Assembly: GCA_965214245.1 (NCBI GenBank)
Contig: CBDCBL010000009.1
Coordinates: 15,551 to 79,550, forward strand
Length of the DNA stretch: 64,000 nt
Reading direction: 5' to 3'
Source: Acidobacteriota bacterium
GTDB taxonomy: Bacteria; Acidobacteriota; UBA890
The notes beneath the pieces are model-generated. The model made no database searches and was not told the DNA's origin. It saw only the letters and a list, made by a program, of their open reading frames with translations. Positions 16,373 to 47,758 of the stretch are shown in pieces. The position numbers were made by a program, and so were the translations under genes. Position 1 is the stretch's first letter; each line of letters starts with the position of its first letter.

Positions 16373-16413
16373 ACGCCCCTGTAGCTCAGGTGGATAGAGC
16401 ACGGGATTCCTAA
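16373..16413 (+). repeat. Partial copy of the 5' half of tRNA-Arg(CCT) (acceptor arm through anticodon loop): att-like direct repeat, left copy
   Basis: The 41 nt cgcccctgtagctcaggtggatagagcacgggattcctaa are identical to 22486-22526 and then diverge from the tRNA. Confidence 0.8.
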
Positions 16414-17007
16414 GGCCATCAGAGCCGTTTCTCGCAACTTCTTGACCTGCTTCGATTTCAGCACAAACCCTTGTTCTCAAAGGGATTGGGGACGCCGGGA
16501 CTGACAGGCCTGACGAGACCAAGAGGACTGAAATCACTGGCAAGTGGCCACGTTTTCGGCCACGCCCACTCAGGCTCTACGGCTGCGTCTTACAATAGGG
16601 TTCAGGGCGTGCCACAGCAGCGCCGCCGGGGCCGTTGTCCTCGACGCTGCTGTTTTGGGGGTAGGGGTGCAGCCTAGATCGTGCGTTGCTGGTCCTTAAA
16701 TCAGCACCGATTCGCTGCCTGTGCGATGCAGCTGTTCCAACAGAACGGCACGTTGGCGGTGAAAACCATGGGGTACGTAGTCGATGACAGCAGATCGCCT
16801 GAGGGGACAAGGACTGCAAGACGTTGCCCCCGAGGAAAATTCCCAGCTCGCTGATCAGAACCAAGAGGACTCGTCGCTCGACAAGCGCCGCTCACCCAAA
16901 GTAATCCAAAGGGCACTAGACGAGTACGGCACTTGTGACCTGTGCCCTGGAGACTGGACCGCGGATAGTGAGAATTTCTCGATAAGAAAACGAGGAGGGA
17001 GATTCTC

Positions 17008-17274
17008 GTGAAGAAGTCGAGGTTCACAGAGCAACAGATTGTGTACGCGATCAAGCAGGTCGAAGCCGGGGTGCCGATCACAGAGTTGTGTCGGAAGTAC
17101 GGAATATCCCAGCAGACGTTCTACCGCTGGCGCAGGAAGTATGGAGGGCTGGCGCCGCGCGAGCTGCAGCGGCTCAAGGAGCTTGAGCGAGAGAACACGC
17201 AACTGAAGAAGCTGGTGGCAGACCTGAGCCTCGACAAGCAGATCCTGCAGGATGTGCTCGCAAGAAAAGATTGA
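17008..17274 (+). CDS. IS3-family transposase OrfA (helix-turn-helix / leucine zipper)
   Basis: MKKSRFTEQQIVYAIKQVEAGVPITELCRKYGISQQTFYRWRRKY... Confidence 0.85.
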   Translation: MKKSRFTEQQIVYAIKQVEAGVPITELCRKYGISQQTFYRWRRKYGGLAPRELQRLKELERENTQLKKLVADLSLDKQILQDVLARKD

Positions 17275-18104
17275 AGCCCGCGCGCAAGAGAAAGCTCGTT
17301 TACCGAGCGCAGGAGCAGTATGGAGCGTCGGAACGGCGAGCGTGTGGGCTCATTCAGATTGGTCGAACAACCCACCGGTACCAGAGCATCAGGGACCCAC
17401 AGGATGAGCTGCGGTTGCGCTTGAAGGAATTGGCGGCAGCCAGACCGCGGTACGGATCTCGGCGTCTGCACATCTTGCTGCAGCGTGAGGGCTGGAAGAT
17501 CAACCACAAGCGGGTTTGCCGGCTGTATCGGGAAGAGGGCCTACAGGTACGTAGACGACGTCGTCGGAAGGTTGCGGCGCGCCCTCGGGTTCGGCTGCCG
17601 GCCCCAAGCGAGCTGAACCATCGGTGGAGTCTGGACTTCGTCGCCGACGAACTGGTGAGCGGTCGCCGTTTCCGGGTACTGACAGTCATCGACATCCATA
17701 GCGGCGAGTGCCTGGCGCTGAAGGCTGGCTTCTCGCTCACCGCACAGATCGTCACCGCACAGCTGGAGGAGATCATCGCCGAGCGCGGAGTGCCGGTCGC
17801 CCTGACCCAAGACAACGGGACGGAGTTCACCTCGAGGCACTACGATGCCTGGGCGTTCTCGGCGGGGATCCAGTTAGACTTCATCCGGCCGGGACGTCCG
17901 GTCGAGAACTGCTACATCGAGAGCTTCAACGGCAAGCTACGAGACGAGTGCTTGAGCCAGAGCTGGTTCCTGAGCCTCTCCGAGGCTCAGGAACAGCTGG
18001 ACGCATTCCGGAAGGACTACAACGAAACGAGACCGCATTCTTCTTTAGGCAACCTGCCGCCTGCCGTGTATGTCCAACTGCTGCAGGAGGTTGCAGCTAC
18101 CTGA
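17271..18104 (+). CDS. IS3-family transposase OrfB (DDE integrase core); made as an OrfAB fusion by -1 frameshift near AAGAAAAGA (17262-17270)
   Basis: ...HRWSLDFV...LTQDNGTEFTS...[14 protein letters not shown]...RPHSSLG is the DDE core. Confidence 0.85.
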   Translation: MKPARKRKLVYRAQEQYGASERRACGLIQIGRTTHRYQSIRDPQDELRLRLKELAAARPRYGSRRLHILLQREGWKINHKRVCRLYREEGLQVRRRRRRKVAARPRVRLPAPSELNHRWSLDFVADELVSGRRFRVLTVIDIHSGECLALKAGFSLTAQIVTAQLEEIIAERGVPVALTQDNGTEFTSRHYDAWAFSAGIQLDFIRPGRPVENCYIESFNGKLRDECLSQSWFLSLSEAQEQLDAFRKDYNETRPHSSLGNLPPAVYVQLLQEVAAT

Positions 18105-18235
18105 TGCCCACTAACCCGAGTTTTTCTCGTTTTCGATGGACCCAAGTTGGGGTACACCTCACAGCACCGTGTTACTGAGATAGAAGGTGGTACTAACCGC
18201 GGGGTCTGGTCACTTGCCCGTCTGATCCCCGCGTC

Positions 18236-18565
18236 ATGATGTACGCAAAACTCCTCGCCGAAGGAAAACGGCAAAGACAAGCGTACCTACTCTGTTACCC
18301 CGAAGCAGCGGAATGGACCCAGAGTTCTCTCGACTCTCAAGCCAGCATCTTGGCTGCTCACCCTAAAGTGGCTGAGTGGAGGGCCTCACACGTCCTGGGT
18401 CCCACAAACCTAGCCCGTGCAGCGACCCCTCAGGCGCTGCGGCGAACGATCGAATTAGGTCAGGGCCAGCACGGCGCAAACGCCAAGGTTCAACTCGACG
18501 CAGCGTCCTCGATACTGGACAGAGGTGGAGTGCCGAGGTCGAAGGAGTTCGCGATTGTGGCTTAG
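18236..18565 (+). CDS. Hypothetical protein inside the integrated element
   Basis: It is a 109-aa ORF in more AT-rich DNA; no recognisable motif. Confidence 0.25.
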   Translation: MMYAKLLAEGKRQRQAYLLCYPEAAEWTQSSLDSQASILAAHPKVAEWRASHVLGPTNLARAATPQALRRTIELGQGQHGANAKVQLDAASSILDRGGVPRSKEFAIVA

Positions 18566-18882
18566 GCGCTGTCGTTGAATCTCATCGCCGAACTTGAAGC
18601 AAGCCCCGACTCCGCACCTCCTGTGTCAGCGCTAGGGGGTGGCCAAGATGCCCTCGAGAAAGCACGCTCAGAATGGGCTGCTTTCTCACCCGGAAAGCAG
18701 GGCGATGACAGGACCACGGAGGCCCGTGCTGGTTCGGCTACCGGTCAAGTGGGACCATCCGGCTTGGGCCGCCGGCCTCCTGGGTAGTAGACGGACATCT
18801 TCTGCTTGGGCAAGGTTCGGCGGCCCTCTAGATTCAGCACGGCCCCGGCTGCTCCGACAGAGCGACCGGGGCCGGATGCTGT

Positions 18883-19479
18883 CTAGACTTCTATTTGGAA
18901 GCTCGCCTTTCGCACATCCTCCTTCGTAATGCCCAAGTAGGTAAGCAGAGCCCCAGGTGTCCGGTGCCCTAGCTTCTCCTGAACGACCGCCATTGGCACA
19001 CACGCTTCAAGTGCGGCTCGGCCCCATGTCTTACGCCACGAGTGCGGCGAATACACGCCGTCCGTGAGGCCCTCAGCCGCCGTGTCACGCTTGATCAGTT
19101 GCCAAGCCCGTCGCCTATCCAGCGGTTTCAATTCGCCCGTATCGGCGTCTCTGTTCCTGCTGGGGAACAATGGTGCACGGGGGTTCAACGGGTCCTGATG
19201 ACCGTCGCCGAGGTAGGCCCGAATCGCTGCCGTGATCTTGGGCGTGATGTCACACGTCACCGTCTTCTTGGTCTTCCGCTGCTTGATCCTGAACGACTTG
19301 CGGATGCCTTTCGAACCTCGCACGTCACCCACCGTGACGGCGAGCAGATCGGAGACGCGCAGCGCCCAATTGGGGCCGGCGGTCCACAGCAGCGCGTCGC
19401 GAAGATTCCCGGAGCCTTTGTGCATGTCCTGAATCACCCGTACCTTCTGGACGGGGATGTAGTCGGATGCGTCAGCCAT
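18883..19479 (-). CDS. Small tyrosine recombinase (198 aa, catalytic domain only; FimB/FimE-sized)
   Basis: The catalytic residues are spaced as expected: R in ALRVSDLLAVTVGDV, HSWRKT, GHRT, and Y in LTYLG. Confidence 0.65.
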   Translation of the reverse strand: MADASDYIPVQKVRVIQDMHKGSGNLRDALLWTAGPNWALRVSDLLAVTVGDVRGSKGIRKSFRIKQRKTKKTVTCDITPKITAAIRAYLGDGHQDPLNPRAPLFPSRNRDADTGELKPLDRRRAWQLIKRDTAAEGLTDGVYSPHSWRKTWGRAALEACVPMAVVQEKLGHRTPGALLTYLGITKEDVRKASFQIEV

Positions 19480-19488
19480 CGGAATCTC

Positions 19489-20314
19489 CTACGCCGCGAC
19501 AGGCTGAGTTTCCTCGGCCTGCCCCAGGATCAGCGCCAACACTTTCTCAACGTCCGAGACAACCTTCAGCGCCAAGCGGTGCGGGTCACCGTTACCGCTG
19601 TAGCCTTTCAGGTAGTCGTATCTGTAACCGTCGTTCGGTGCGCCATACAGCCGCGACAGAACAGCTGCTGATAGCTCGGCGACTGCTTCCTGTGTCGGTC
19701 GCTGTCCACCCTTGAGTTCGTTGCCACGTTCACCCAGAACGCGACGGTGTGCAGCGTGTGCCAGCTCGTGCCAAAACGTTTGGCTGTTGTGGGTAAACAG
19801 GGTGATCTCATCGCGGTCGATTGCGTACGAGCCGTAGGCGCTGACATTGGGCCTGCCGAGGTACTGCAACAGCCACTCCAAGCCGCTCGGCAACGTCTGC
19901 CAGCGCTGGAGGCTCTGGTGGCTCATAGTCGAACGTCGGCAGCACGTCTCCGTCGGTATCCTCGAGACGGAACACGGGAACCGCACGGAACCCCGTCAGC
20001 ACTTGCCGCTTGACCTCCTGGCCGTTGTCCTCCTCGGTGAACGTCTTGAGGTTCAGGGCCAGGATGTAGACGGCCTTGCAGCCTTTCTTGACGTGGCGGC
20101 CCATCTGTTTCCACTGCCGATAGCCGCGAGCGTCGGCAGTACCTGACAGCCAACACATGACGCGGTTGGACAGCGACCACGCGTCGCACGGCCTCACGTC
20201 GTCAGGGTGACGGGGAATCATGTTCTTGGCGATGGCGGTTTCTACCTCGCCTGTACGGAAAGCCTCAAGCAGCTGATCTAGCTGCACCTGGGCCTTGTCT
20301 GGAAGCCTGAACAT
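19489..20314 (-). pseudogene. ardC: ArdC-like antirestriction protein (ssDNA-binding N-domain plus HExxH zincin C-domain), split by a frameshift
   Basis: ORF 19808-20314 is the N-domain. ORF 19489-19986 is the C-domain with AYGSYAIDRDEITLFTHNSQTFWHELAHAAHRR. The two overlap out of frame, and together give about 280 aa. Confidence 0.5.
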
Positions 20315-20457
20315 TGGCTACCTCCTGTGGTTAGTAGTAGACGGACAAGACTATTATGCACAGGTACGTCTAGTTCGTCAACACAAAACCACCATGAAAA
20401 TGTGCTCGAATCAGCGCAAAGCCTTGTCAGGCTTAGATCAGCGGGGATTCACTCAAG

Positions 20458-20487
20458 TAGACACAAAGCCCTTCTGTCTACTTCGGC
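20458..20487. repeat. Palindromic site AGTAGACA-N11-TGTCTACT (copy 1 of a direct-repeat pair)
   Basis: It is repeated at 20765-20794. Related GTAGACG half-sites occur at 18786 and 20340. Confidence 0.5.
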
Positions 20488-20764
20488 GGTTCAAGCAACG
20501 GACGGTCTCCCACGTCGGACAGCGGGCCGTGGTCGCTCGGGAGTCGGAGCCGTTGTCGATGCCGCGGCAGCGCATCGGATCGGGCCTCAGGCAGCGCGAC
20601 GCTTCGGTAGGACGACCGGGGACGACCACGACCCGGGGGGGTGGCGGGACGGGGCATGCCAGGTCGGAGAGGTATACCTGTGACGGTGGTTACTTCCTGA
20701 AACTCGCCGAGTTGAGTCCCACCGGGGGGTTGGCGCTGTGCAAGGGGCACGCTGCGTTGCTGAG

Positions 20765-20794
20765 TAGACACAAGAGCCTTCTGTCGACTTCGAT
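20765..20794. repeat. Palindromic site AGTAGACA-N11-TGTCGACT (copy 2)
   Basis: It is a direct repeat of 20458-20487 in non-coding, AT-richer DNA between the ArdC-like gene and the IS3 remnant. Confidence 0.5.
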
Positions 20795-20864
20795 CTTTGA
20801 GCGGGGTCGCTGAGGTCGTTTTCAAGCCAGGCGAGAAGCGTGGGCCAGGTAGGGCAGGTGTCGG

Positions 20865-21132
20865 TCACCGTCCGGTCGGCACCCGCTGCTTCAATTCCTC
20901 GAACCAGTTGAGGACGACGTTGATGCCGGGGGTAGCGGGGGCGCGGTGGTCGATCCAACCGCACGGATCCTGGGCTCGTTCGAGGACGGCAGTCAGCCCG
21001 CGCAGGTCGAACTGAACGCGTTGCAGCGAAGCTTCAGCAGAATCCGTCGAAAGGCCAATGCGAACCTCGTCGTGCTGCAGCATCGTTCGAATCACGCTGG
21101 TGGCATTGCTTAACTCGAGCCGATTCTGGAGT
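20865..21132 (-). pseudogene. 3' portion of a hypothetical gene truncated by the IS3-family insertion
   Basis: The reading frame continues straight into the IS terminal repeat at ~21133, so the native N-terminus is lost. Confidence 0.3.
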
Positions 21133-21166
21133 TGCCCCGCTTTGGTGGACGGTTCCCCGCTCACAT

Positions 21167-21766
21167 TTAAGCGATCTGAGCGTGCCTCCTTTCGTACCCC
21201 ATGGGCGAGTCGTAGTCCAGGGGTGAGTGTCTGCGACGCGGGTTGTAGAAGCCCTCGATGAACTCGAAGACGGCCATGCGGGCTTCCGCCTGGGACCTGA
21301 ACCGCCGCCGGCGGTTCAGGAGCTCGCACTCGAGGGTGGCGAAGAAGCTCTCGCACATCGCGTTGTCGTAGCAGTCACCGGCTGATCCGGTCGACGGTCG
21401 CACCCCGACCTCCTGGCAGCGCTGACCGAAGGCGATCGACGTGTACTGCGTACCTTGGTCACTGTGATGAATCACCTGTTGGGGCCGTCGTTGCGAGATC
21501 GCCATGTTCAGCGCCTCGAGCACGAACTCGGTGCGCAGATGGGTCGCCATTGACCAACCGACAACGCGACGGCTGAAGACGTCCACGACGACCGACAAGT
21601 ACAAGAACCCTGCCCACGTTGGGATGTAGGTTATGTGGTGCCTCGGCTCTTCCTGTGGATCGCTTCGATCCGTGCCTGCAGCTTTGCGTCCGCCCGCGAT
21701 CGAGCCGACGGTTCCCGCCGGCGCCACGCGTAGTACCCGCTGGAGGAGACCTCCAGCACACGGCAC
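21167..21766 (-). CDS. IS3-family transposase OrfB (DDE core; short, its N-terminal part comes from the frameshift fusion)
   Basis: ...HSDQGTQYTS...DCYDNAMCESFFATLECELL...RRRHSPLDY. Confidence 0.75.
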   Translation of the reverse strand: MPCAGGLLQRVLRVAPAGTVGSIAGGRKAAGTDRSDPQEEPRHHITYIPTWAGFLYLSVVVDVFSRRVVGWSMATHLRTEFVLEALNMAISQRRPQQVIHHSDQGTQYTSIAFGQRCQEVGVRPSTGSAGDCYDNAMCESFFATLECELLNRRRRFRSQAEARMAVFEFIEGFYNPRRRHSPLDYDSPMGYERRHAQIA

Positions 21767-21800
21767 ATCGTGGCAATCGGATACTTCGCCTGGTGACCGC

Positions 21801-22151
21801 TCACGAACTCGAAGACTTCGGCGGTACTGAGTCGGTCTCCCGAGCGAACCAGGCCGCGGCTTTTGAAAGGATCTCCCGCTCTTGCTTCAGCTGGCGGTTC
21901 TCTTTCCGCAGCCGCCCCAGCTCCTCGCGCTCAGCAGTGCTGAGCCCTTCGGCGCTGCGGCCTTCGTCGCGGTCAGCCTGCTTGATCCACTGGCGAATCG
22001 TCCAGTACGACGGCTCGAACTCCTTGGCCAGCTCGGCGACGCTCCGCCCAGCTCGTGCCACTTCTATGATCCGCCGCCGAAACTCCGCCGGGTACGGCCC
22101 TCTTGTCCTTGGCATCCTGAACACCTCCCGTGTACGTCGTAAGGTGTCCAC
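21801..22151 (-). CDS. IS3-family transposase OrfA
   Basis: ...MPRTRGPYPAEFRRRIIEVARAGRSVAELAKEF...LRKENRQLKQEREILSKAAAWFARET. Confidence 0.8.
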   Translation of the reverse strand: MDTLRRTREVFRMPRTRGPYPAEFRRRIIEVARAGRSVAELAKEFEPSYWTIRQWIKQADRDEGRSAEGLSTAEREELGRLRKENRQLKQEREILSKAAAWFARETDSVPPKSSSS

Positions 22152-22163
22152 GAAATCGGGTCA

Positions 22164-22480
22164 AGTCCAAGATCCCCGGCCTGGCTCCTTTCCGGGTGTT
22201 CCACGACTGGCGGCACAGCTTTACTTCGAGGGTGTCAGAGGCAGGGATACCCGAGGCGGTGATTGCCCGGTGGCGGGGCGATGCCGACACGTCGATGCTC
22301 GCTCGCTATCGTCACATGCGGCCCGAAGCTATCGACCACTGGCGCGACGCGCTGCACGAGCGCGATGCAGCCTACCGCAACGGCAGGCTGGTAAACTTGG
22401 GCTCCCGTAGGCGCGAATTGGGGACGGATTTGGGTACGTCGGCCAAGAAGAAATCCCAAACCCCCGAAAACAGCGCCTAA
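22164..22480 (+). pseudogene. C-terminal fragment of a tyrosine integrase gene, truncated at its 5' side by the IS3 element; its 3' end abuts the tRNA-Arg 5' end
   Basis: ...FRVFHDWRHSFTSRVSEAGIPEAVIARWRGDADTSMLARYRHM... (box II and Tyr). It is a paralog of the integrase at 22591-23262. Confidence 0.7.
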
Positions 22481-22487
22481 AGTACCC

Positions 22488-22560
22488 GCCCCTGTAGCTC
22501 AGGTGGATAGAGCACGGGATTCCTAATCCCGGAGCCCAGGTTCGAGTCCTGGCAGGGGCA
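22488..22560 (+). tRNA. tRNA-Arg (anticodon CCT)
   Basis: It folds as a cloverleaf: acceptor GCCCCTG/CAGGGGC, D-arm GCTC..GAGC, anticodon stem CGGGA/TCCCG with loop TTCCTAA, T-arm CCAGG TTCGAGT CCTGG, discriminator A. Confidence 0.85.
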
Positions 22561-22590
22561 TTCAATATCCACGCGGGTTTGCAGCGATTT

Positions 22591-23262
22591 TCAGGCATCC
22601 GAAGTTCGCTTTTTCGCGATCCCTTGCCGCATTTCTTGCCACTCTTGCCGGGAGATAACGATCAGCTCGCCTTCGGCCAGGTTGTCGGCCTGCTTTTCAA
22701 GGGCGTCGGCGGCGCCAGTAAGAGCCGCTGATCGCATGTGCGAGTAGCGGTTCACCATCTGCGTGTCGGAGTGCCCGAGCAACGCGGCGATCCACTGTTC
22801 CGGGATGCCCTGTTCGGTGAGCCTCGACGCGTAGCCGTGGCGCAGATCGTGGATCCGGAACGGCGGCATCTTCACGCCTTCGCTTGAGCGCACCGTATGG
22901 AACGCCTTGCGGATGTTGGTGTACGGCTGGCCTGTCCGGGGTGACGGAAACAGCCACTCGGTACCGGCCAGGTTGGCGGCCTGGACCTTGCGCGCGAGCT
23001 CATCCCGTAACCGATTGGTCATCGGAATCTGGCGCGGCGTGTCGTTCTTCGTTTCGAGTGCGTCAATCGCTTCGCGGGGCGGGCCGTCTTCGCGCGGGTG
23101 CAGATCGAACCGGATGTTGCGCACCCGTAACGTCAGCGCCTCGTTCATCCGGAGCCCCGCATCCCAAAAGCACACCACGATCGCGTTTACGAATCTCGAA
23201 ACTCCTTGGTCGGGCCAGCAGGGTTCAAGGAGACCGCGCGAGAAATCCGATACCCATCTCAC
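22591..23262 (-). CDS. Tyrosine integrase (223 aa, catalytic domain; N-terminal core-binding domain apparently missing)
   Basis: ...LRMNEALTLRVRNI...FRIHDLRHGYASRLTEQGIPEQWIAALLGHSDTQMVNRYSHM. The start lies inside the thioredoxin-fragment region. Confidence 0.65.
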   Translation of the reverse strand: MRWVSDFSRGLLEPCWPDQGVSRFVNAIVVCFWDAGLRMNEALTLRVRNIRFDLHPREDGPPREAIDALETKNDTPRQIPMTNRLRDELARKVQAANLAGTEWLFPSPRTGQPYTNIRKAFHTVRSSEGVKMPPFRIHDLRHGYASRLTEQGIPEQWIAALLGHSDTQMVNRYSHMRSAALTGAADALEKQADNLAEGELIVISRQEWQEMRQGIAKKRTSDA

Positions 23263-23515
23263 CTAGCCTGTTTGAGGTTTCCGTCCACACTGGCAGGGTC
23301 GCCTCGCAAAACTTGCACGTGGTAGTGAAAAAGGCGAGAACAGTAACGCCCGACTCCACGACGGTGTCGAGCCTTCCTGTATCTTCCCCAAGGCTAGTCA
23401 AAGCGATGGGGGCGAGCACGTTTCCCACCTGCACAATCTCGAGTTCGGCTCCGCCTTGCGACCGCGCAGCTAGGTTACGCTTGAGAGCCCGATTCTGTTC
23501 GACCAGAAACAACAT
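23225..23515 (-). pseudogene. N-terminal fragment of a thioredoxin-like (TlpA/redoxin) gene
   Basis: ...VTVLAFFTTTCKFCEATLPVWTETSNRLGEMGIGFLA has the CxxC motif. The frame runs into the integrase region and there is no C-terminal half. Confidence 0.45.
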
Positions 23516-23547
23516 TACGCCGCAGACTGAAAAAACCGTCGCTATGG

Positions 23548-23748
23548 TTGACCGATCGCCTTGGGGCTGAAGCGATTCGCATCCCCTATGTACCGGTCAC
23601 GGTCCTGGTGGATGAGAATCGGATGGTTCAAGGTATTTGGAAGGGGGCGTTGAGTGACGTCGACATGGACGCCATCATCGGCGCGGCTGCCAGGTTCGCT
23701 ACCAGCGACGGCGCCGTAACTGGTAATGATGGAACACCGACCAGATAG
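23548..23748 (+). pseudogene. C-terminal fragment of a thioredoxin-like gene on the opposite strand
   Basis: ...IRIPYVPVTVLVDENRMVQGIW... resembles the redoxin C-terminal beta-alpha region. It diverges from the N-terminal fragment above. Confidence 0.35.
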
Positions 23749-23757
23749 GCTAGATGG

Positions 23758-24378
23758 ATGACGAAAGCTAGCGTCCTGCTGGGTGCAAGCCTTGCATGGT
23801 CAATGACCCTGTTCGCCTGCGCGAGCTCCGGTGATCCGGCCACGGACGAGTGGCGGGTAACGCGCGTAGTCAATGGCACCGTCACCACTATTCGGAACGA
23901 AGCGGGATCCAAGTGGGGTAGGCCAGCGCGACTTGTCGAGGAGCTGTCGATTGGGGAGGAAGCCAGCGAGGCGCCTTTCATTTTCGGTGACGTGACCGAT
24001 ATTTGGGCGACGGAGGACCGGATCTATGTGGTCGACATACAGGTTCCTGCGGTCAGGGTGTATGACCACAACGGCAACTACATCAAGGACATCGGAGCGG
24101 CTGGTCCCGGCCCAGGAGAGTACGAGAAGCCTCACTATGTCGCGGTTGCTTCCGATGGCAGGATTTTCGTGACCGAGCTGAGTACTGTGGCCACCATCAA
24201 CGTGTACGGCGAAGACGGAAACTACTTGGAAACATGGACTTGGCCGAGAGGCGGGACCGGGATTGGGTTCTCCTTGAGCGTCGATGACGTCGTGTACGTG
24301 GGACTTCGCGACTACTTCGATCTTATTGACCAGACCCCGCGGTTAGTACCACCTTCTATCTCAGTAACACGGTGCTGA
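23758..24378 (+). pseudogene. NHL/beta-propeller-repeat lipoprotein gene truncated by an IS insertion (C-terminus encoded by the IS end)
   Basis: There is a signal peptide with a lipobox (LFAC). The last 16 residues [16 protein letters not shown] are read from the IS3 terminal repeat that begins at 24327. Confidence 0.55.
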
Positions 24379-24866
24379 CAAGATGTTGTTGAGGCCGGCG
24401 AAGCGTAGCGTAGCCGGTTTCAACAACACCGCTTCCGGTGCCGGAGGTCGATAGCCCAGCGAGCTGTGCGGTCGTACGCGGTTGTACTGCTGGCGCCATC
24501 TCTCGATCAGAACCTTTGCCTCCTTCAGCGTGTAGAAGATCTCCCCGTTCAGCAGCTCGTCTCTGAGCTTGCCGTTGAAGCTCTCCACATAGCCGTTCTC
24601 CCATGGGGAGCCCGGCTCGATGAACAGCGTGCCGACGCCGAGCCGGCCCAACCAGTCGCGAACCGCCTCGGCGGTGAATTCCGGTCCGTTATCTGACCTG
24701 ATGTGCGCTGGAATACCTCGATGAACGAACAGTCGTCCTAGTCGGTGAAGTACGTTCTCGGAGTTGAGCTTCCGCGCCACGTCGATTGCAAGGCTCTCCC
24801 GTGTGTACTCGTCGACGATCGTCAGCAGCCTCATAGCCCGACCGTCATGCGTCCGGTGGTGGACGA

Positions 24867-26234
24867 GGATGTGTCCCGAAGTTTGTAGAAAATCGTCTGG
24901 CGTGGCTCCGAGCTTGGACGTTTGACGTTACCTGCTACGCGGCCAACTCCTCCTGTTGGTCGATGATCGCGGCGAGATGCCGGTACCCGTCGATGCGGCG
25001 CATGCGGATCTGCCCGAACGCGATCAGCCCCCACAGCAGCGTCACCCCGGCCGCCTCGGTGCTGAACGATCCCTGGGTCTTGGTACGGCGACGGAACTCG
25101 CGGTTGAGGTTCTCCAGTGGGTTCGTCGTGCGCAGCGTCTTGCACATCGGTTTGGGGAACTCGTAGAAGGTCAGCAGCACCAGCCCCGCTTCCTCGAGGC
25201 TGCGCGCCACCGCCGGCACCAACCTCGACCACTTGCGCACGAAGTTGCTGTACGCGGCCCTCGCCTCGCTGCCGTTTGCCGCCTTCACGATGCGGTCCCA
25301 GTCTCGTTTCAGCTCGTCGTGGGCGTGTGACGGGCAATGCTTCAACAGATTCTTCCACTTGTGCTGAAGGCAGCGCTGCACCTTCGCTTCGGGCCACACC
25401 GTCGTCGCCTTGGCCAGCCCTTTGTGGCCGTCGGCGATGATCAGCCGGGGCGGCCGAAGACCTCTTTGCTCTAGGTCCTCGATCAGCCACTTCCAGTGAC
25501 ACCCGGCCTCCGAAGCGGCCCGACGCAACGCCACCAACACCTTGCGCCCATCTTCCGCCACTCCCAGCGCGGCGAAGATCGGCACCGACACGACCTGCCG
25601 CGCCAACCTCACCTTCAGGTGGAACCCGTCCAGGTACACGATCGGGTACGACTCACCGGTCAGATCGCGCTCGCACCACGTCCCGAACAGCTTCTTCAGC
25701 CGCCCCACCACCCTTGAGATCGCGCTCTTCGAGAGGTTCGCTTCACCCAGCAGCGGCGCGAGCGCCTTGCGGATCCGTCGGCTATTTGCACCCGCCAGGT
25801 ACACCCCTAGAATCGCCTCGTCGACTTCCTCGGTGCGCCGTTGATACCGCGGCAGGATCGTGCTGCGGAACTCCCCGGTGCTGCCGTCCTCTCGCAGCAG
25901 CCGTCCCCGTGGTACCTCCAGATCCTGCGGCCCCTGCGCCATCGTGATCTGCCGCCGATACGTCCCGTGCCGATATCCTCGCCGCGAGCCGTTGCGCTCG
26001 TACGGCCCGCATCCCAACGCCTCGGCGAGCTCCTCCTCAAGCGTGATCGTAATCGCCTCCTGGATGCGGCTGTGCAGCAGCTCCTGGATGGCGCTACGGA
26101 ACTCGATGACCGATACCTCTCCCGTGCTACCGTTGCTCATGGTGTGACCTCCTTGTTGTCGCCGTTTCCAGCGACTCGTTTTTCCTACTCGGAGGTTACG
26201 CCATTTCTTTTTCTACAGGACTCGGGACGGATCC
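24867..26234 (-). mobile_element. IS256-family insertion sequence (1368 bp) with an 8-bp TSD GTGGACGA
   Basis: Imperfect ~26-bp terminal inverted repeats GGATGTGTCCCGAAGTTTGTAGAAAA / TTTTCTACAGGACTCGGGACGGATCC. The TSD is at 24859-24866 and 26235-26242, and it restores the IS3 OrfB frame. Confidence 0.8.
24935..26140 (-). CDS. IS256-family (mutator-type) transposase
   Basis: It is 401 aa: ...YLDGFHLKVR...ADGHKGL...CLQHKWKN... Confidence 0.9.
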   Translation of the reverse strand: MSNGSTGEVSVIEFRSAIQELLHSRIQEAITITLEEELAEALGCGPYERNGSRRGYRHGTYRRQITMAQGPQDLEVPRGRLLREDGSTGEFRSTILPRYQRRTEEVDEAILGVYLAGANSRRIRKALAPLLGEANLSKSAISRVVGRLKKLFGTWCERDLTGESYPIVYLDGFHLKVRLARQVVSVPIFAALGVAEDGRKVLVALRRAASEAGCHWKWLIEDLEQRGLRPPRLIIADGHKGLAKATTVWPEAKVQRCLQHKWKNLLKHCPSHAHDELKRDWDRIVKAANGSEARAAYSNFVRKWSRLVPAVARSLEEAGLVLLTFYEFPKPMCKTLRTTNPLENLNREFRRRTKTQGSFSTEAAGVTLLWGLIAFGQIRMRRIDGYRHLAAIIDQQEELAA

Positions 26235-28686: not shown

Positions 28687-28740
28687 TCAAGAACGGCGAA
28701 GCTCCGACAAGTTGCCGAGGCTGTTGCCGTCGTAAGTAGA

Positions 28741-28768
28741 TCCATGACACTTTCACCACGGCCTGCTA
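28741..28768. repeat. 33-bp inverted-repeat family, degenerate A-form copy (tCCATGACACTTTCACCACGGCCTGCTA)
   Basis: It ends 13 nt before the DUF2065 start codon. Upstream DNA resembles the interior of the family's other copies. Confidence 0.6.
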
Positions 28769-28781
28769 GCATCGACGCACA

Positions 28782-28982
28782 ATGGACTGGCAGCTCATAT
28801 TGCTGGCCTTGGGGTTGGCGTTGATCATCGAAGGGCTGCCGTACTTTCTGTTTCCCGTGGGGACGCTCCGGACTCTCCGTCAGCTTGAGAGCCTCGGCCC
28901 CGAGGCGGCCCGGTTTTTGGGCCTCGCGGCGTTGATTGCCGGTCTCGTGCTGCTCTTTGTGGGAAGGCTGGCGGCGGGGTGA
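28782..28982 (+). CDS. DUF2065-family small membrane protein
   Basis: MDWQLILLALGLALIIEGLPYFLFP... is 66 aa. It is bracketed by A-form (28741-28768) and B-form (28980-29013) repeats, and its TGA stop is the first 3 nt of the B repeat. Confidence 0.6.
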   Translation: MDWQLILLALGLALIIEGLPYFLFPVGTLRTLRQLESLGPEAARFLGLAALIAGLVLLFVGRLAAG

Positions 28983-29013
28983 GCAGGCCGTGGTGAAAGT
29001 GTGATGGGTCTGG
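28980..29013. repeat. 33-bp inverted-repeat family, B-form copy (TGAGCAGGCCGTGGTGAAAGTGTGATGGGTCTGG)
   Basis: It contains GGTG-N8-ATG. The ATG at 29004 is the likely start codon of the downstream HEAT-repeat lipoprotein. Confidence 0.7.
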
Positions 29014-29759
29014 TTGAGGTGAGGCGGCTCCCACTGGTTGCTGGGATGGTAGCGGCGCTCGCCGCCGGTTGTGCGACGGCCGACCCGACACCCGCTGTCG
29101 TGAAGCGGATCATCGATGAGCTCAGCACCCAACAGTTCGGACGCGCCACGGCGTTGTACACCGAGCGGGAGGAGATGGTCCTCAGCCCGCCCGCGGCGCC
29201 CGGTTGGCGGCGCGGCATGGATCACGAAGACGCGACCGTTCGCGAGTGGTCGATCGACGCCCTCAGCCGCATCGCATTGCCGGAAGACGTGCCTCTCGTC
29301 GTCGCGGCGTTGGACGATCCCTTCCGGCGGGTTCAGGAGGCGGCGGCGCAGGGCCTCATCGACATGGACCCGGTGGCGGCGCGCGTCGCTTTCATCGACC
29401 GTCTGTCGGAGGGTGACCCGAGGCAACAGACGATTGCGGCGCAGGGCCTCGCCGATCTGGGCGATACGGAGGCGGTGCCGGCGCTCGTCGGGCAACTCAG
29501 CGACGAACGGCTCGCCGCCGGGTTGCGTGGCGTGATCGCGCAGTCGCTGTCCCGCCTCGGCGATGTTCGCGCCGTGGAGCCCCTCGCCGCGCTGGCGGGC
29601 AACTCGGATGCGGATACGCAGTTGCGACGTACGGCCGTCGAGGCGCTGGCCGGTATCGAGGGCGAGGCGACGGTGCGGGCTCTGGAGAGCTTGCTGGAAG
29701 CGGACGACTCCTATGTCCAGGACGTTGCGCGGCGCGTCCTCGACGCGCTCAAACGGTAA
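29004..29759 (+). CDS. HEAT-repeat (PBS-lyase-like) probable lipoprotein
   Basis: The signal sequence is MGLVEVRRLPLVAGMVAALAAGC. The body has repeated ...AxxAL..IGD..AVP.L...L motifs. Confidence 0.6.
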   Translation: MGLVEVRRLPLVAGMVAALAAGCATADPTPAVVKRIIDELSTQQFGRATALYTEREEMVLSPPAAPGWRRGMDHEDATVREWSIDALSRIALPEDVPLVVAALDDPFRRVQEAAAQGLIDMDPVAARVAFIDRLSEGDPRQQTIAAQGLADLGDTEAVPALVGQLSDERLAAGLRGVIAQSLSRLGDVRAVEPLAALAGNSDADTQLRRTAVEALAGIEGEATVRALESLLEADDSYVQDVARRVLDALKR

Positions 29760-33267: not shown

Positions 33268-33282
33268 TTTCCGAGCTCTAGC

Positions 33283-33315
33283 AGACCCATCACACTTTCA
33301 GCAGGGCCTGCTCAA
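33283..33315. repeat. 33-bp inverted-repeat family, solo variant A-form copy
   Basis: GCAGACCCATCACACTTTCAGCAGGGCCTGCTC sits in the divergent tsaB/mutS intergenic region. Confidence 0.6.
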
Positions 33316-36701: not shown

Positions 36702-36900
36702 TAGCAGGCCGTGGTGGAAGTGTGATGGGTCTGGCGCGCCCGCAACCCCCACGCGCGCCCCTGCGGGTTGCGACGACAAAAGGCCATCTGCGGCGTTGCC
36801 GCTCCTCGACGATGTATCAACATCGCCGTAGTCGCGGCGCCTTGCATCTGGCCTCTTGTCGTCGCAACCAGACCCATCACACTTTCACCACGGCCTGCTA
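36702..36900. mobile_element. MITE/REP-like element (199 bp) with perfect 33-bp terminal inverted repeats
   Basis: TAGCAGGCCGTGGTGGAAGTGTGATGGGTCTGG ... CCAGACCCATCACACTTTCACCACGGCCTGCTA. The interior is hairpin-rich and 95 bp of it resemble copy 46402-46681. Confidence 0.75.
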
Positions 36901-44478: not shown

Positions 44479-44619
44479 CACTCCCGAGGTGCCCGTTTGC
44501 AAGCGCGCTGCCCGTGGCCGCAGTGCATTGCGCGTCACGTAGCGGAATCGCTATACTGCTTGTGCTTCAGGGGCGAAGGTTGTCAAGCCAGTGTGGGGGG
44601 GCGCGTCGGGAGACGTGCC

Positions 44620-46404
44620 ATGCCGAAATCGACAAGACGTTCGTGTGTTCCGCTGACCTTCGCGATAATGCTCTTGCTCGCCGCGCCTTCCGCGGCCGTT
44701 TCTTCCTCGCCGCAGGAGCTCTTCGAGCGCGCTGAAACGCTGTATCGGCAGCTCGAGGTCGTGGATCCCTCCGGCGAAGCCGCCTCTTGGGCTCGAGTAA
44801 CGGATGCTTTCGCCGCTGTCGCGACGCGCTACCCTGACAGCCCGCTAGCCTCTGAAGCTCTGTGGCGGATGTCGTGGATCTACGGCCGCCAGGGTCGGGC
44901 TGGCGACCCCGCCTCGTCGGCACGCCAACTCGAGCTGTACCGGGAGCTGGTTCAGCACTATCCAACAAGCCCGCACGCGCCTGAAGCCTTACTCCGGTTG
45001 GCGGCGGATGCCGAGGGGGAGGGTGGGGCCCGCGCCGCGGTGCTCTATTCCCGATTGCTCCAACAATATCCTTCGACGCCACAGGCTTCGCTGGCCCGGA
45101 ACCGGATGGCCGGAGTCATCCGCGCCAATCCCGATGCCGATCCAGCAACGGTGACGACCGGAGAGGCTCCGCGGAGACCGGCGCCGAGCGTGCCGGAGCC
45201 TGAACGCCGGCTGGCAGCTCCGGCGCCCGGTTCCGAAGCGGAACAGCCTCGCCCATCGACCGACAGTGACGTCGCGGACAACCTCGCCGTGCTCAGCGGT
45301 GTCCGCTACTACAGCGACCGCACATACACGCGGATCGTGCTCGACCTCGATCGGTCGGTGACCTACCAGACCGGCGAGGCCCATTCCCCGGAGAGGTTAT
45401 TCGTCGATCTCAAGGGCGTCGGCAAACCTAAAGACTTGCCGGGAGCTCGGCCTTCGGGACGCGAGCAGGTTATCGCTGTCGATGGCAACGCGGTGTCGCG
45501 TGTGCGCGTCGCCTTGAACCAGCCCGGCATCGTCCGCGTGGTGATCGACCTTGCCCAGACGTCGAAGTACACGATGTTCACGCTCGACAAGGTGGACGAG
45601 CCGTTCCGCATCGTCATCGATGTGCCGACGGCGACGGTTGCGTCGCGCCTTCGCGATGAGCGCCGGCCGGCGCAGCCGGAGGGCGGGTCGATAACCGAGC
45701 AGCTCGGCCTCGGGGTGCACCGCGTGGTCATCGATCCGGGGCATGGTGGCACCGACCCGGGGGCCATCGGCCGCACCGGAGCTACCGAGAAAGAGCTGGC
45801 GCTGGCGCTGTCCCAGACGCTCGCGACGCGTTTACGAGAGAGCGGCTACGAAGTCATCTTGACGCGCGACGAGGACCGCACGGTGTCGCTGCAGGAGCGC
45901 ACCGAGTTCGCCAATCGTGTCGACGCCGATCTTTTCATCTCGATGCACATAAACTCGGCGCGCAATCGCAAGCTGCGTGGTTTCGAGACGTACTATCTGA
46001 ATCTTGCCAACGATCCGACCGCGGCCGAGGCCGCAGCGCGCGAGAACGCCGCCGGGCAACGCGGCAGCATGGGTGATCTGCAAGAGACGCTGGAGCTCAT
46101 CGTCAGTAATGAGTACCAGGGGGCTTCGGGAGAGCTCGCCGCGTCGATTCAGGACAGCCTGGTGATGCACGTCTCGAAGAACTACCAGAACGTGCACGAC
46201 CTGGGCGTCAAGACCGCGCCCTTCTTTGTGCTGGTGGGCGCCGAGATGCCGGCCATCCTGATCGAGGCCTCGTTCGTGAGCAACGAACAGGAAGAGGCCT
46301 GGCTGAAGAGTAGCGACTACAGAGTTCAGGTGGCCGAGGCCATCGAGATCGGCCTGCAGAGCTATGTCGACAAGCGTCGGGTCACGGCTCAGAGGGGTCG
46401 CTAG
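44620..46404 (+). CDS. N-acetylmuramoyl-L-alanine amidase (AmiC-like) with N-terminal TPR-like and AMIN domains
   Basis: A signal peptide is followed by ...VVIDPGHGGTDPGA...FISMHINS.... The TAG stop is the first 3 nt of the MITE-like repeat. Confidence 0.8.
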   Translation: MPKSTRRSCVPLTFAIMLLLAAPSAAVSSSPQELFERAETLYRQLEVVDPSGEAASWARVTDAFAAVATRYPDSPLASEALWRMSWIYGRQGRAGDPASSARQLELYRELVQHYPTSPHAPEALLRLAADAEGEGGARAAVLYSRLLQQYPSTPQASLARNRMAGVIRANPDADPATVTTGEAPRRPAPSVPEPERRLAAPAPGSEAEQPRPSTDSDVADNLAVLSGVRYYSDRTYTRIVLDLDRSVTYQTGEAHSPERLFVDLKGVGKPKDLPGARPSGREQVIAVDGNAVSRVRVALNQPGIVRVVIDLAQTSKYTMFTLDKVDEPFRIVIDVPTATVASRLRDERRPAQPEGGSITEQLGLGVHRVVIDPGHGGTDPGAIGRTGATEKELALALSQTLATRLRESGYEVILTRDEDRTVSLQERTEFANRVDADLFISMHINSARNRKLRGFETYYLNLANDPTAAEAAARENAAGQRGSMGDLQETLELIVSNEYQGASGELAASIQDSLVMHVSKNYQNVHDLGVKTAPFFVLVGAEMPAILIEASFVSNEQEEAWLKSSDYRVQVAEAIEIGLQSYVDKRRVTAQRGR

Positions 46405-46681
46405 CAGGCCGTGGTGAAAGTGTGATGGGTCTGGCCGCGCGGGTATTGTAGTCGAGGGCAAGGAGCGCCGACACAGGCGATGCCGGAGCCATCGTCGAGG
46501 AGGCGCGACGCCGCCATCGGCTGCAAGACGCGCGCGCCCGGAGGGTTGAGGCGAGGAGGGGGCATCTGCGGCGTTGCTGCTCCTCCACGATACGTCAAGA
46601 GCATCGCGGTCGTCACAGCGCCTTGCATCTGCCCCCTTCTCGCCTCAACCAGACCCATCACACTTTCACCACGGCCTGCTA
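46402..46681. mobile_element. MITE/REP-like element (280 bp) with 33-bp terminal inverted repeats, exactly filling the gap between two convergent stop codons
   Basis: TAGCAGGCCGTGGTGAAAGTGTGATGGGTCTGG at 46402-46434 and its reverse complement at 46649-46681. The terminal TAG and CTA triplets are the stop codons of the flanking genes. Confidence 0.8.
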
Positions 46682-47026
46682 GGGCCAGTAGGTCGCACTG
46701 AAGCCCGCCGCCTCGCCGATTTCGACGTGCAGGACCTCTGTGCCCGGCAGCTCGCGATCGAGCAGCTCGGCGAGCGTGCGCGCCACCTCCTCGGCGGTTG
46801 GGTTCACCGCATCGAAGGGGGGAACGTCGTTGAAGCAAGCACCCTCGTGACGGGTGACCCACGCGTCGAGGACGGCGCGGGCTTGTACGGCTGCTTCTTC
46901 CGCCCGCGCCGAGCGCAGTGATGCTTTGATGCGCCAGTTGTGAGCGTGCAACGGCTCGAGCGTGCCGCGCGAATCGATGCGAATGCGATGTGTTGCCGGA
47001 AACTCGGCGGCGAGACAGAAGATCAT
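46679..47026 (-). CDS. 6-pyruvoyl-tetrahydropterin synthase / QueD-family protein
   Basis: It has the ...LHAHNWRI... His motif and is 115 aa. Its stop codon lies inside the repeat terminus. Confidence 0.6.
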   Translation of the reverse strand: MIFCLAAEFPATHRIRIDSRGTLEPLHAHNWRIKASLRSARAEEAAVQARAVLDAWVTRHEGACFNDVPPFDAVNPTAEEVARTLAELLDRELPGTEVLHVEIGEAAGFSATYWP

Positions 47027-47152
47027 GATGACAATCTTGTTCGCGAAGCGCCGACAGGGTTTCTCCCCACCCCGCTAATCGTATCCTTGACGGGGCACAA
47101 GAGCTAAACTGTCGGCGAGATCGGGTACGCAGGATCTGTCGAGACCAAAGCA

Positions 47153-47758
47153 ATGGCTGCCAACACCCCGCAACCGGGACACGCATCGCCGGACCTTGCC
47201 GCGCAGGCTACCGGCAACTGGACGTTGCCCAACGCGCTCACGATCCTGCGGATCTTCCTGGTTCCGGTGTTGGTGGTGTTCCTGCTCACCGAATATACGC
47301 TCATCGGGCTGTCGGTGTTCATCCTGGCCTCTCTCACCGATTGGTTTGACGGTTATCTGGCGCGCACGCGAGGGCAAGTCACCACGCTCGGACAGCTTCT
47401 CGACCCGGTTGCCGACAAGCTGTTGATCTCGGCGGCGTTCATCTCGCTGGTCGAGCTCGGTTTGGCGCCCGCCTGGATGGTGGTGATCATCGTCGGTCGG
47501 GAGTTGGCAATAAGCGGTCTGCGATCGATAGCCGCGGATCAGAACGTGGACATCCCGACCTCGTCGATCGGCAAGTACAAGACGACGGCGCAAATGATCA
47601 CCGTAATCATTCTCATACTGGGTCCCCAGTGGATGGGCGGGTACATGGTGTTGGGACAGATCGGCCTGTGGGTGGTGGTGATCCTGTCGATGATGTCGGC
47701 AAGGCACTACTTCGTTTCGTTCTGGGGTCGACTGGGATTGGGGGGCGGCGAAGCCTGA
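47153..47758 (+). CDS. pgsA: CDP-diacylglycerol--glycerol-3-phosphate 3-phosphatidyltransferase
   Basis: ...DWFDGYLARTRGQVTTLGQLLDPVADK... Confidence 0.85.
   Translation: MAANTPQPGHASPDLAAQATGNWTLPNALTILRIFLVPVLVVFLLTEYTLIGLSVFILASLTDWFDGYLARTRGQVTTLGQLLDPVADKLLISAAFISLVELGLAPAWMVVIIVGRELAISGLRSIAADQNVDIPTSSIGKYKTTAQMITVIILILGPQWMGGYMVLGQIGLWVVVILSMMSARHYFVSFWGRLGLGGGEA

Follow-up and report, generated by a model that had tools for sequence, protein, structure and literature searches.

A probable TA-targeting miniature transposon seated between two convergent stop codons in an Acidobacteriota genome

How does a repeated element come to lie between two convergent genes in such a way that it fills the entire space from one stop codon to the other? 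The question is raised by a stretch of 64,000 nucleotides (here called the window) from an Acidobacteriota bacterium (assembly GCA_965214245.1, contig CBDCBL010000009.1, positions 15,551 to 79,550), in which an AmiC-like amidase gene and a QueD-like gene converge upon a palindromic element of 276 bp. The first-pass annotation of the window had described a 33-nt repeat at 46402-46434 with its perfect reverse complement at 46649-46681, belonging to an element akin to a MITE (short for miniature inverted-repeat transposable element) or a repetitive extragenic palindrome (REP) and occupying the whole space between the two stops. These descriptions hold, as the list of open reading frames (ORFs) closes the amidase frame (44497..46404, plus strand) with the TAG at 46402-46404 and the QueD-like frame (46679..47026, minus strand) at the CTA at 46679-46681, while a repeat search found the arms (46401-46434 and 46649-46682) to be even longer, at 34 nt, 100% complementary and spaced by 214 nt, i.e. 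the 33-mer plus one further base (CTAG...CTAG). The feature is very probably a full-length copy of a non-autonomous DNA transposon, a MITE, which targets TA and is abundant in a clade of uncultured, GC-rich Acidobacteriota. The parts of the locus are as follows:

44620..46404, plus strand: gene for an AMIN + Amidase_3 protein (AmiC-like N-acetylmuramoyl-L-alanine amidase) of 594 aa, with its start codon ATG at 44620
46402..46403: left copy of the target TA, which with G 46404 forms the amidase stop TAG; the empty site has one TA, the window two
46404..46434, plus strand: left terminal inverted repeat, GCAGGCCGTGGTGAAAGTGTGATGGGTCTGG, 31 nt (33-34 nt with the flanking TA/CTA)
46433..46538: internal hairpin A (RNAalifold helices 2-7), whose core repeats that of hairpin B in inverted and diverged form
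46544..46650: internal hairpin B (RNAalifold helices 8-12), with an outer stem of 26 bp (46544-46569 / 46625-46650)
46649..46679, minus strand: right terminal inverted repeat, the perfect reverse complement of the left repeat
46680..46681: right copy of the target TA, which with the last base of the element (C 46679) forms CTA, the minus-strand TAG of the QueD-like gene
46679..47026, minus strand: PTPS/QueD-like gene, 115 aa, ending ...ATYWP*

To compare filled and empty sites, contigs of relatives were chosen by QueD homology and their junctions were aligned with that of the window. The element is present in all contigs with an identical QueD. In L103 and L104 (QueD 92% identical) and in L106 (88%) it is absent, and the genes for QueD and amidase share an overlap of 23 nt; the empty junction reads TACTGGCCCGGC[T/G]C-TA-GCGACCCCTCTGAGC (in a longer form as far as GCGACCCCTCTGAGCCGTGA), with a single TA within a CTAG that contains the amidase stop codon. 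The minus strand of the window reads TACTGGCCC-TA-[276 bp]-TA-GCGACCCCTCTGAGC (longer flank GCGACCCCTCTGAGCCGTGA), with the TA duplicated. The single TA of the relatives versus TA-element-TA in the window thus indicates insertion into the TA of the amidase TAG stop with duplication of that TA, as the first-pass annotation had suggested for the case that TA is the target. The element is also absent from L105 (QueD 85% identical), in which the junction holds a 14-nt spacer.

The same target is apparent across the family to which the element belongs. Among the 280 family ends with enough flanking sequence in the fetched genome and metagenome loci, 237 (85%) are flanked by TA and 218 (78%) carry a C at position -3, whereas the background frequency of a C before TA in the same DNA is 28%. 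Conservation stops abruptly at the TA, the positions farther out being unconserved, and paired ends read xTA...TAy, where x is mostly C and y mostly G, with no longer direct repeat. The TA flanks and the C at -3 thus define the target as TA, preferably within CTAG, with duplication of the TA.

This target choice bears directly on the fit between the stop codons. The first base of the element is G and its last base is C (termini GCAGG...CCTGC), so that TA and G form an inward TAG on both strands, while for a second frame the stop is a TGA located 13 nt inside the terminal repeat. In this 65% GC genome TA occurs 16 times per kb and CTAG 0.67 times per kb; an in-frame TAG is impossible inside genes and insertions elsewhere in genes would be selected against. 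Given a scarce target and selection against genic insertion, surviving copies are expected in intergenic DNA and at stop codons. In keeping with this, a likely coding frame is closed exactly at the boundary of TA and G by 71 of the 280 ends (25%), the other two frames accounting for 17 and 25 ends, and ends that abut a stop are equally frequent on the A side (28%) and the B side (22%). Since the two genes shared one CTAG, a single insertion gives an element bounded by two stop codons. The exact fit therefore follows from target choice and terminal bases, with no special adaptation of the locus.

The course of events that we propose would begin with amidase and QueD-like genes that abutted or overlapped across the CTAG holding the amidase TAG. 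The element, its 31-nt terminal repeats presumably being bound by a transposase that is encoded elsewhere in the genome, would insert by cut-and-paste into TA, preferably within CTAG, and duplicate the TA, in the manner of IS630/Tc1-mariner elements (IS, insertion sequence). Upon insertion into that TA, the duplicated TA and the terminal G and C would re-create an inward TAG on either strand; the amidase would keep its exact end, and QueD would now stop at ...YWP*, with a 5-nt difference on the QueD side placing its TAG in frame.

The family itself extends well beyond this locus. Within the window the 33-mer has five matches at no more than 3 mismatches, versus none in 100 shuffles of the window, and the terminal repeat is present five further times, so that the 33-mer is repeated elsewhere. 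When one genome per species was scanned with a degenerate 29-nt pattern of the terminal repeat, at least 97 stretches in at least 10 assemblies matched, all phylum-named matches listed being Acidobacteriota genome bins, and many of the listed genome matches sit at contig ends. The same pattern matched 113 stretches in metagenome contigs and nothing in viral contigs, and a blastn search against plasmids gave no match. Full-length copies, identified by a fuzzy search for paired ends, number at least 23 in the genome set (270-276 bp) and 14 in the metagenome set (273-274 bp), and the window copy (276 bp) is a canonical full-length member. Further forms comprise internally deleted copies of 57-237 bp and many solo or truncated ends. 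Copies at separate loci of chromosome OZ244217.1 are 93-99.6% identical, compared with a between-genome mean of 77.5%, and this high identity within a genome suggests recent amplification within lineages.

Among 23 full-length copies from different genomes the terminal repeat is almost unvarying. The interior holds only chance open frames, as expected in GC-rich DNA, and no transposase gene; with copy lengths of 270-276 bp, no reading frame is kept. One frame of 261 codons on the minus strand (46401-47186) crosses the whole element and is closed by the far TAG, the element's 276 bp being equal to 92 codons without a stop in one frame; given those copy lengths, it is probably due to chance in GC-rich DNA. 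The element thus shares with known MITEs its size (~50-800 bp, without an internal transposase gene), its terminal repeats (at least 10-15 bp) and its multiple dispersed copies, near-identical within a genome, as well as a target-site duplication visible between empty and filled sites, with a 5-nt difference on one flank. Repetition, TA duplication and empty sites together bear out the MITE half of the first-pass description. Of the two outcomes named there as refuting it, a 33-mer confined to this locus and relatives that already carry the element at the orthologous site, neither was obtained.

A number of observations weigh against the reading of the element as an IS630-like MITE that inserted here. 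Five nucleotides (GGCNC) present next to QueD in the empty-site relatives are missing from the window, and the exact pre-insertion allele that would be predicted, TACTGGCCCTAGCGACCCC, was not found in the metagenome contig collection; as the GGCNC stretch varies among the relatives, the 5-nt difference may predate the insertion. In the 97 genome loci and 113 metagenome loci fetched (1.58 Mb), which were searched for a partner transposase, no two terminal repeats face each other across a transposase gene at a distance of 0.6-3 kb. The transposases encoded in the window are of the IS3 (rve) and IS256 (Transposase_mut) families, together with tyrosine integrases, and these families make longer target duplications. 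Furthermore, some groups of the IS5 family also target YTAR/CTAG with short duplications, so that a transposase of another family may be involved. Lastly, the strong covariation of the internal hairpins, described below, is not required by a model in which transposition depends on the terminal repeats only.

The partner of IS630/Tc1, RAYT or IS3 type that the first-pass annotation had proposed to look for was thus encountered neither in the window nor in the 1.58 Mb of fetched loci. Clustering of ORFs over all fetched loci returned only syntenic orthologues and no multi-copy transposase, and the ORFs beside atypical ends resemble ordinary genes. The sole repeat pair spaced by 1.9 kb (L182) proved to combine a half element and a separate, complete MITE with a gene for UDP-glucose dehydrogenase, and was rejected as an IS. 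An ORF of L094 that lies about 260 nt inside a B-type end, itself truncated, begins ...MEFMREFPDDETCLTWLWENRYSPAGKN; this start presumably resembles the N-terminal zinc-ribbon region of IS1595-family transposases, and the ORF may represent another IS inserted into or beside a relic of the MITE.

Both the TA target with a 2-bp duplication and the preference for CTAG, which are characteristic of IS630-type elements, were found here, and the passage of PMC2170065 that cites Tenzen et al. 1990 and Tenzen & Ohtsubo 1991 documents both for the IS630 family. Assignment to IS630/Tc1-mariner, made from this target-site signature, is in our judgement probable, with moderate confidence. The main alternative keeps the same MITE and has it mobilised by a transposase of the IS5 family (IS427/ISL2-like) or by another non-IS630 DDE transposase, with YTAR/CTAG targets and duplications of 2-4 bp. 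The IS5 subgroups show that a CTAG preference with a 2-bp TA duplication is not unique to IS630, and the failure to find an IS630-type partner in the window or the fetched loci leaves room for such an enzyme; however, an IS5-type partner was not found there either, and a strict 2-bp TA duplication with terminal repeats of ~31 nt is most typical of IS630/Tc1-mariner (PMC2170065). Mobilisation by an IS5-type enzyme is accordingly rated as unlikely.

The interior of the element, a 214-bp region described as rich in hairpins by the first-pass annotation, is indeed highly structured. The minimum free energy of the RNA is -206.7 kcal/mol (z = -14.4) on the plus strand and -192 kcal/mol (z = -12.5) on the minus strand relative to shuffles. 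The consensus fold of 23 copies (RNAalifold) comprises the terminal-repeat stem and hairpins A and B, and 95.4% of alignment cells are paired. The conserved core of hairpin B reads CATCTGCGGCGTTGC.GCTCCTC.ACGAT...ATCGC..GTC...GCGCCTTGCATCTG, and its relation to the core of hairpin A is also seen as inverted-repeat pairs in the repeat search of the window. In 42 of 96 pairs overall, both sides have changed with the pair kept in at least one copy, compared with 23.8 +/- 2.1 in shuffles and 7-13 for slid partners; compensatory double changes affect 19 of 33 pairs in hairpin A and 20 of 35 in hairpin B. Several pairs occur as three or four pair types, which indicates repeated compensatory events. 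Judged from the alignment, the internal hairpins are maintained by compensatory changes, the cause of which may be selection, acting either on RNA or on single-stranded DNA, or else the homogenisation of quasi-palindromes by template switching.

Signals of a function in transcription or as an RNA were sought and not observed. A hairpin followed by a T-run is absent from the element, the sole terminator-like site in 46200-46900 lying inside the amidase gene (46203-46221), and a consensus scan of the element identified no sigma-70-like promoter. At the gathering score, Rfam models matched only tRNAs in the window, and a permissive search added only generic miRNA-hairpin models (18-31 bits, versus thresholds of 47-168 bits). 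Counts of G.U versus A.C revealed no consistent strand bias, so that no functional RNA strand is picked out.

It is nevertheless conceivable, as a speculation to which we attach low probability, that the family is a selected 'stop-codon-safe' symmetric cassette, each end of which gives the incoming transcript a stable 3' hairpin; its role in these GC-rich Acidobacteriota could in that case be that of a bidirectional terminator, insulator or mRNA stabiliser that needs no U-tract. If true, this would explain the compensation in the stems, half elements kept at gene 3' ends, the equal abutment of stops at both ends and the survival of a copy between formerly overlapping convergent genes. A half element of this kind, consisting of one terminal repeat and hairpin A only, is situated at 7863-7990 of L182, directly downstream of the 3' end of the UDP-glucose dehydrogenase-like gene, and such half elements could bear on the 3'-hairpin hypothesis.

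A stronger version, in which the element is primarily a structured RNA or DNA module selected by the host (such as an insulator, a stabiliser or a bidirectional 3'-end hairpin) and has become repeated only secondarily, is improbable. It would account for the excess of compensatory pairs over both controls (42 of 96 versus 23.8 +/- 2.1 and 7-13), for folding z-scores of about -14 and -12, and for the ~25% of ends that lie exactly at gene 3' ends. The site is, however, empty in close relatives, many copies are truncated or solo relics, and copies also occur between divergent genes and upstream of gene starts. The lack of a T-run terminator, promoter, Rfam family and consistent G.U versus A.C bias likewise speaks against it, and template-switch repair of quasi-palindromes can yield complementary arms without selection.

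REPs go together with RAYT transposases and do not duplicate their target. The idea of a REP, a bacterial interspersed mosaic element (BIME) or a REPIN palindrome spread by a RAYT (IS200-like Y1) transposase was attractive in that the element is intergenic, palindromic, highly structured, multi-copy and often found at gene ends. The TA duplication demonstrated here is contrary to it, as are a length of 276 bp, GCAGG termini and the absence of any recurrent ORF accompanying the copies in the fetched loci; moreover, REPs are 20-40 bp long and most carry a GTAG/CGTC tag at one end, according to the portion of PMC3733652 that describes them, while the terminal repeats here are 31 nt. This origin is therefore regarded as very improbable. 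An invertible DNA switch flipped by a site-specific recombinase, which perfect 34-nt inverted repeats around 214 bp might bring to mind, has next to no probability in view of hundreds of dispersed copies, no promoter inside, no adjoining recombinase gene, and the same orientation (B side by QueD) in four assemblies (the window and three contigs, one in two samples). The REP/RAYT, inverton and 'primarily RNA gene' readings are thus disfavoured by the TA duplication and the empty site, by the many copies in decay and by the variety of genomic contexts, and an assembly artefact was rejected.

The likeness to REP/BIME or Correia elements noted in the first-pass annotation stands in part: no short palindrome with a GTAG/CGTC tag is present and the TA is duplicated, which removes the REP/BIME part, while the Correia elements are the closest working analogue. 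Correia elements are flanked by TA, as is the element here. Found in Neisseria and also termed CREE (Correia repeat enclosed elements), they are MITEs with terminal repeats of ~26-31 nt, abundant in intergenic DNA near genes and without a known transposase; they differ in being 104-157 bp long, AT-rich and Neisseria-specific, with an IHF site and functional promoters (PMC3184786). On direct reading the terminal-repeat sequence of the present element is unrelated to theirs, and no sigma-70-like promoter was found in it. With the MITEs of IS630/Tc1-mariner type it shares a short, non-coding body, long terminal inverted repeats, TA duplication, the CTAG preference of IS630 itself, empty/filled site polymorphism between relatives and a very stable predicted fold (PMC2170065; PMC3184786); among these the cyanobacterial Nezha MITE and ISNpu3 form a documented MITE/IS pair (PMC2170065; PMC3184786). 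It differs from them in having no sequence similarity to described elements, no cognate IS among the loci searched, an uncultured Acidobacteriota host, two hairpins with extensive compensatory variation and termini that regenerate TAG on both strands. The Chunjie MITE of Geobacter uraniireducens is similar in its length of 178-235 bp, its very stable RNA-level fold and its copies that overlap gene ends, but has 9-bp direct repeats, 21-bp terminal repeats and an A+T-rich sequence and belongs to a different transposition family (PMC3184786). By analogy, then, the element would work most like IS630-type MITEs and Correia elements. A literature search returned no description of this family, which is apparently an undescribed, new family of a well-known kind, the bacterial MITE.

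The further members of the family within the window are decayed to various degrees:

28736..28768, minus strand: solo end (TA and a terminal repeat bearing 4 mismatches), situated ~13 nt upstream of a short plus-strand ORF
28981..29023, plus strand: solo end with a B-stem remnant, flanked by GA, not TA
33279..33313, minus strand: 'mini' form, one terminal repeat closed by CTGC-TA
36702..36900: second window copy, 195 bp plus the TAs, with most of hairpin A deleted, between divergent genes

The B stem of the copy at 36702-36900 is of a different subfamily, so that two B-stem subfamilies coexist in the window. Terminal-repeat position 14 (alignment columns 16/272) is A at both ends in 14 elements and G at both in 7, the two ends of an element varying together; the copy at 36702-36900, with G on the left and A on the right, is an exception. 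The solo end at 28981-29023 overlaps both the TGA with which a small upstream ORF stops and the beginning of a lipoprotein-like ORF, and the remnant as a whole (28981-29030) supplies the first codons or start region of the latter (...RRLPLVAGMVAALAAGC); to judge from the sequence, it looks like a remnant co-opted as the 5' end of a gene. The 'mini' form, TA-GCAGGCC...GGGTCTGC-TA, recurs at unrelated loci in several genomes (L021, L023, L045), which would fit either repeated internal deletions, nearly complete, at the TCTG/CCTG microhomology or a processing product of unexplained origin.

As regards the flanking genes, the names given in the first-pass annotation agree with gene calls on a near-identical public contig, where PF11741 AMIN and PF01520 Amidase_3 are assigned to the 594-aa protein and PF01242 PTPS to the 115-aa protein. 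The amidase of the relatives ends ...GGT CG(C/T) TAG at the homologous position, as in the window, while the QueD-like protein of the window stops at the conserved ...ATYWP and is missing the variable tail of 8-10 residues of its closest relatives. The apparent effects of the insertion on its neighbours are small, in that the end of the amidase is intact and QueD loses a non-conserved tail of ~8 residues. At the same junction in L101 and L102 (genome bin CBDUXW, QueD 89% identical), the genes for QueD and amidase are separated by a TPR-repeat gene of 434 aa, which marks the junction as a rearrangement hotspot in the clade.

Elsewhere in the window, a mobile-element island extends from 16374 to 26140, with a GC content of 58-62% versus ~65%. 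Within it lie a 40-nt duplicate of the 5' part of tRNA-Arg(CCT) (16374-16413, identical to 22487-22526), two inverted copies of an IS3-family (rve) transposase with a perfect 51-nt inverted repeat (18162-18212 / 24327-24377), tyrosine-integrase ORFs (18883-19479 and 22591-23262), an ArdC-N-like ORF (19808-20314) and an IS256-family transposase (24935-26140). The island is probably an element integrated at the tRNA-Arg gene that acquired IS insertions later.

The stop-regenerating termini and the covarying hairpins are notable features that would not surprise a specialist, nor do they overturn current understanding. For annotation, the repeat explains contig breaks in Acidobacteriota bins, given the many matches at contig ends, as well as one class of 'intergenic hairpins' and several genes that begin or end oddly, while its conserved terminal repeat provides a handle for finding the transposase. 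More broadly, the family offers a natural example of how a TA-in-CTAG target combined with G...C termini lets a transposon settle in stop codons and leave its neighbours unharmed, and of how such an element can pry apart overlapping convergent genes.

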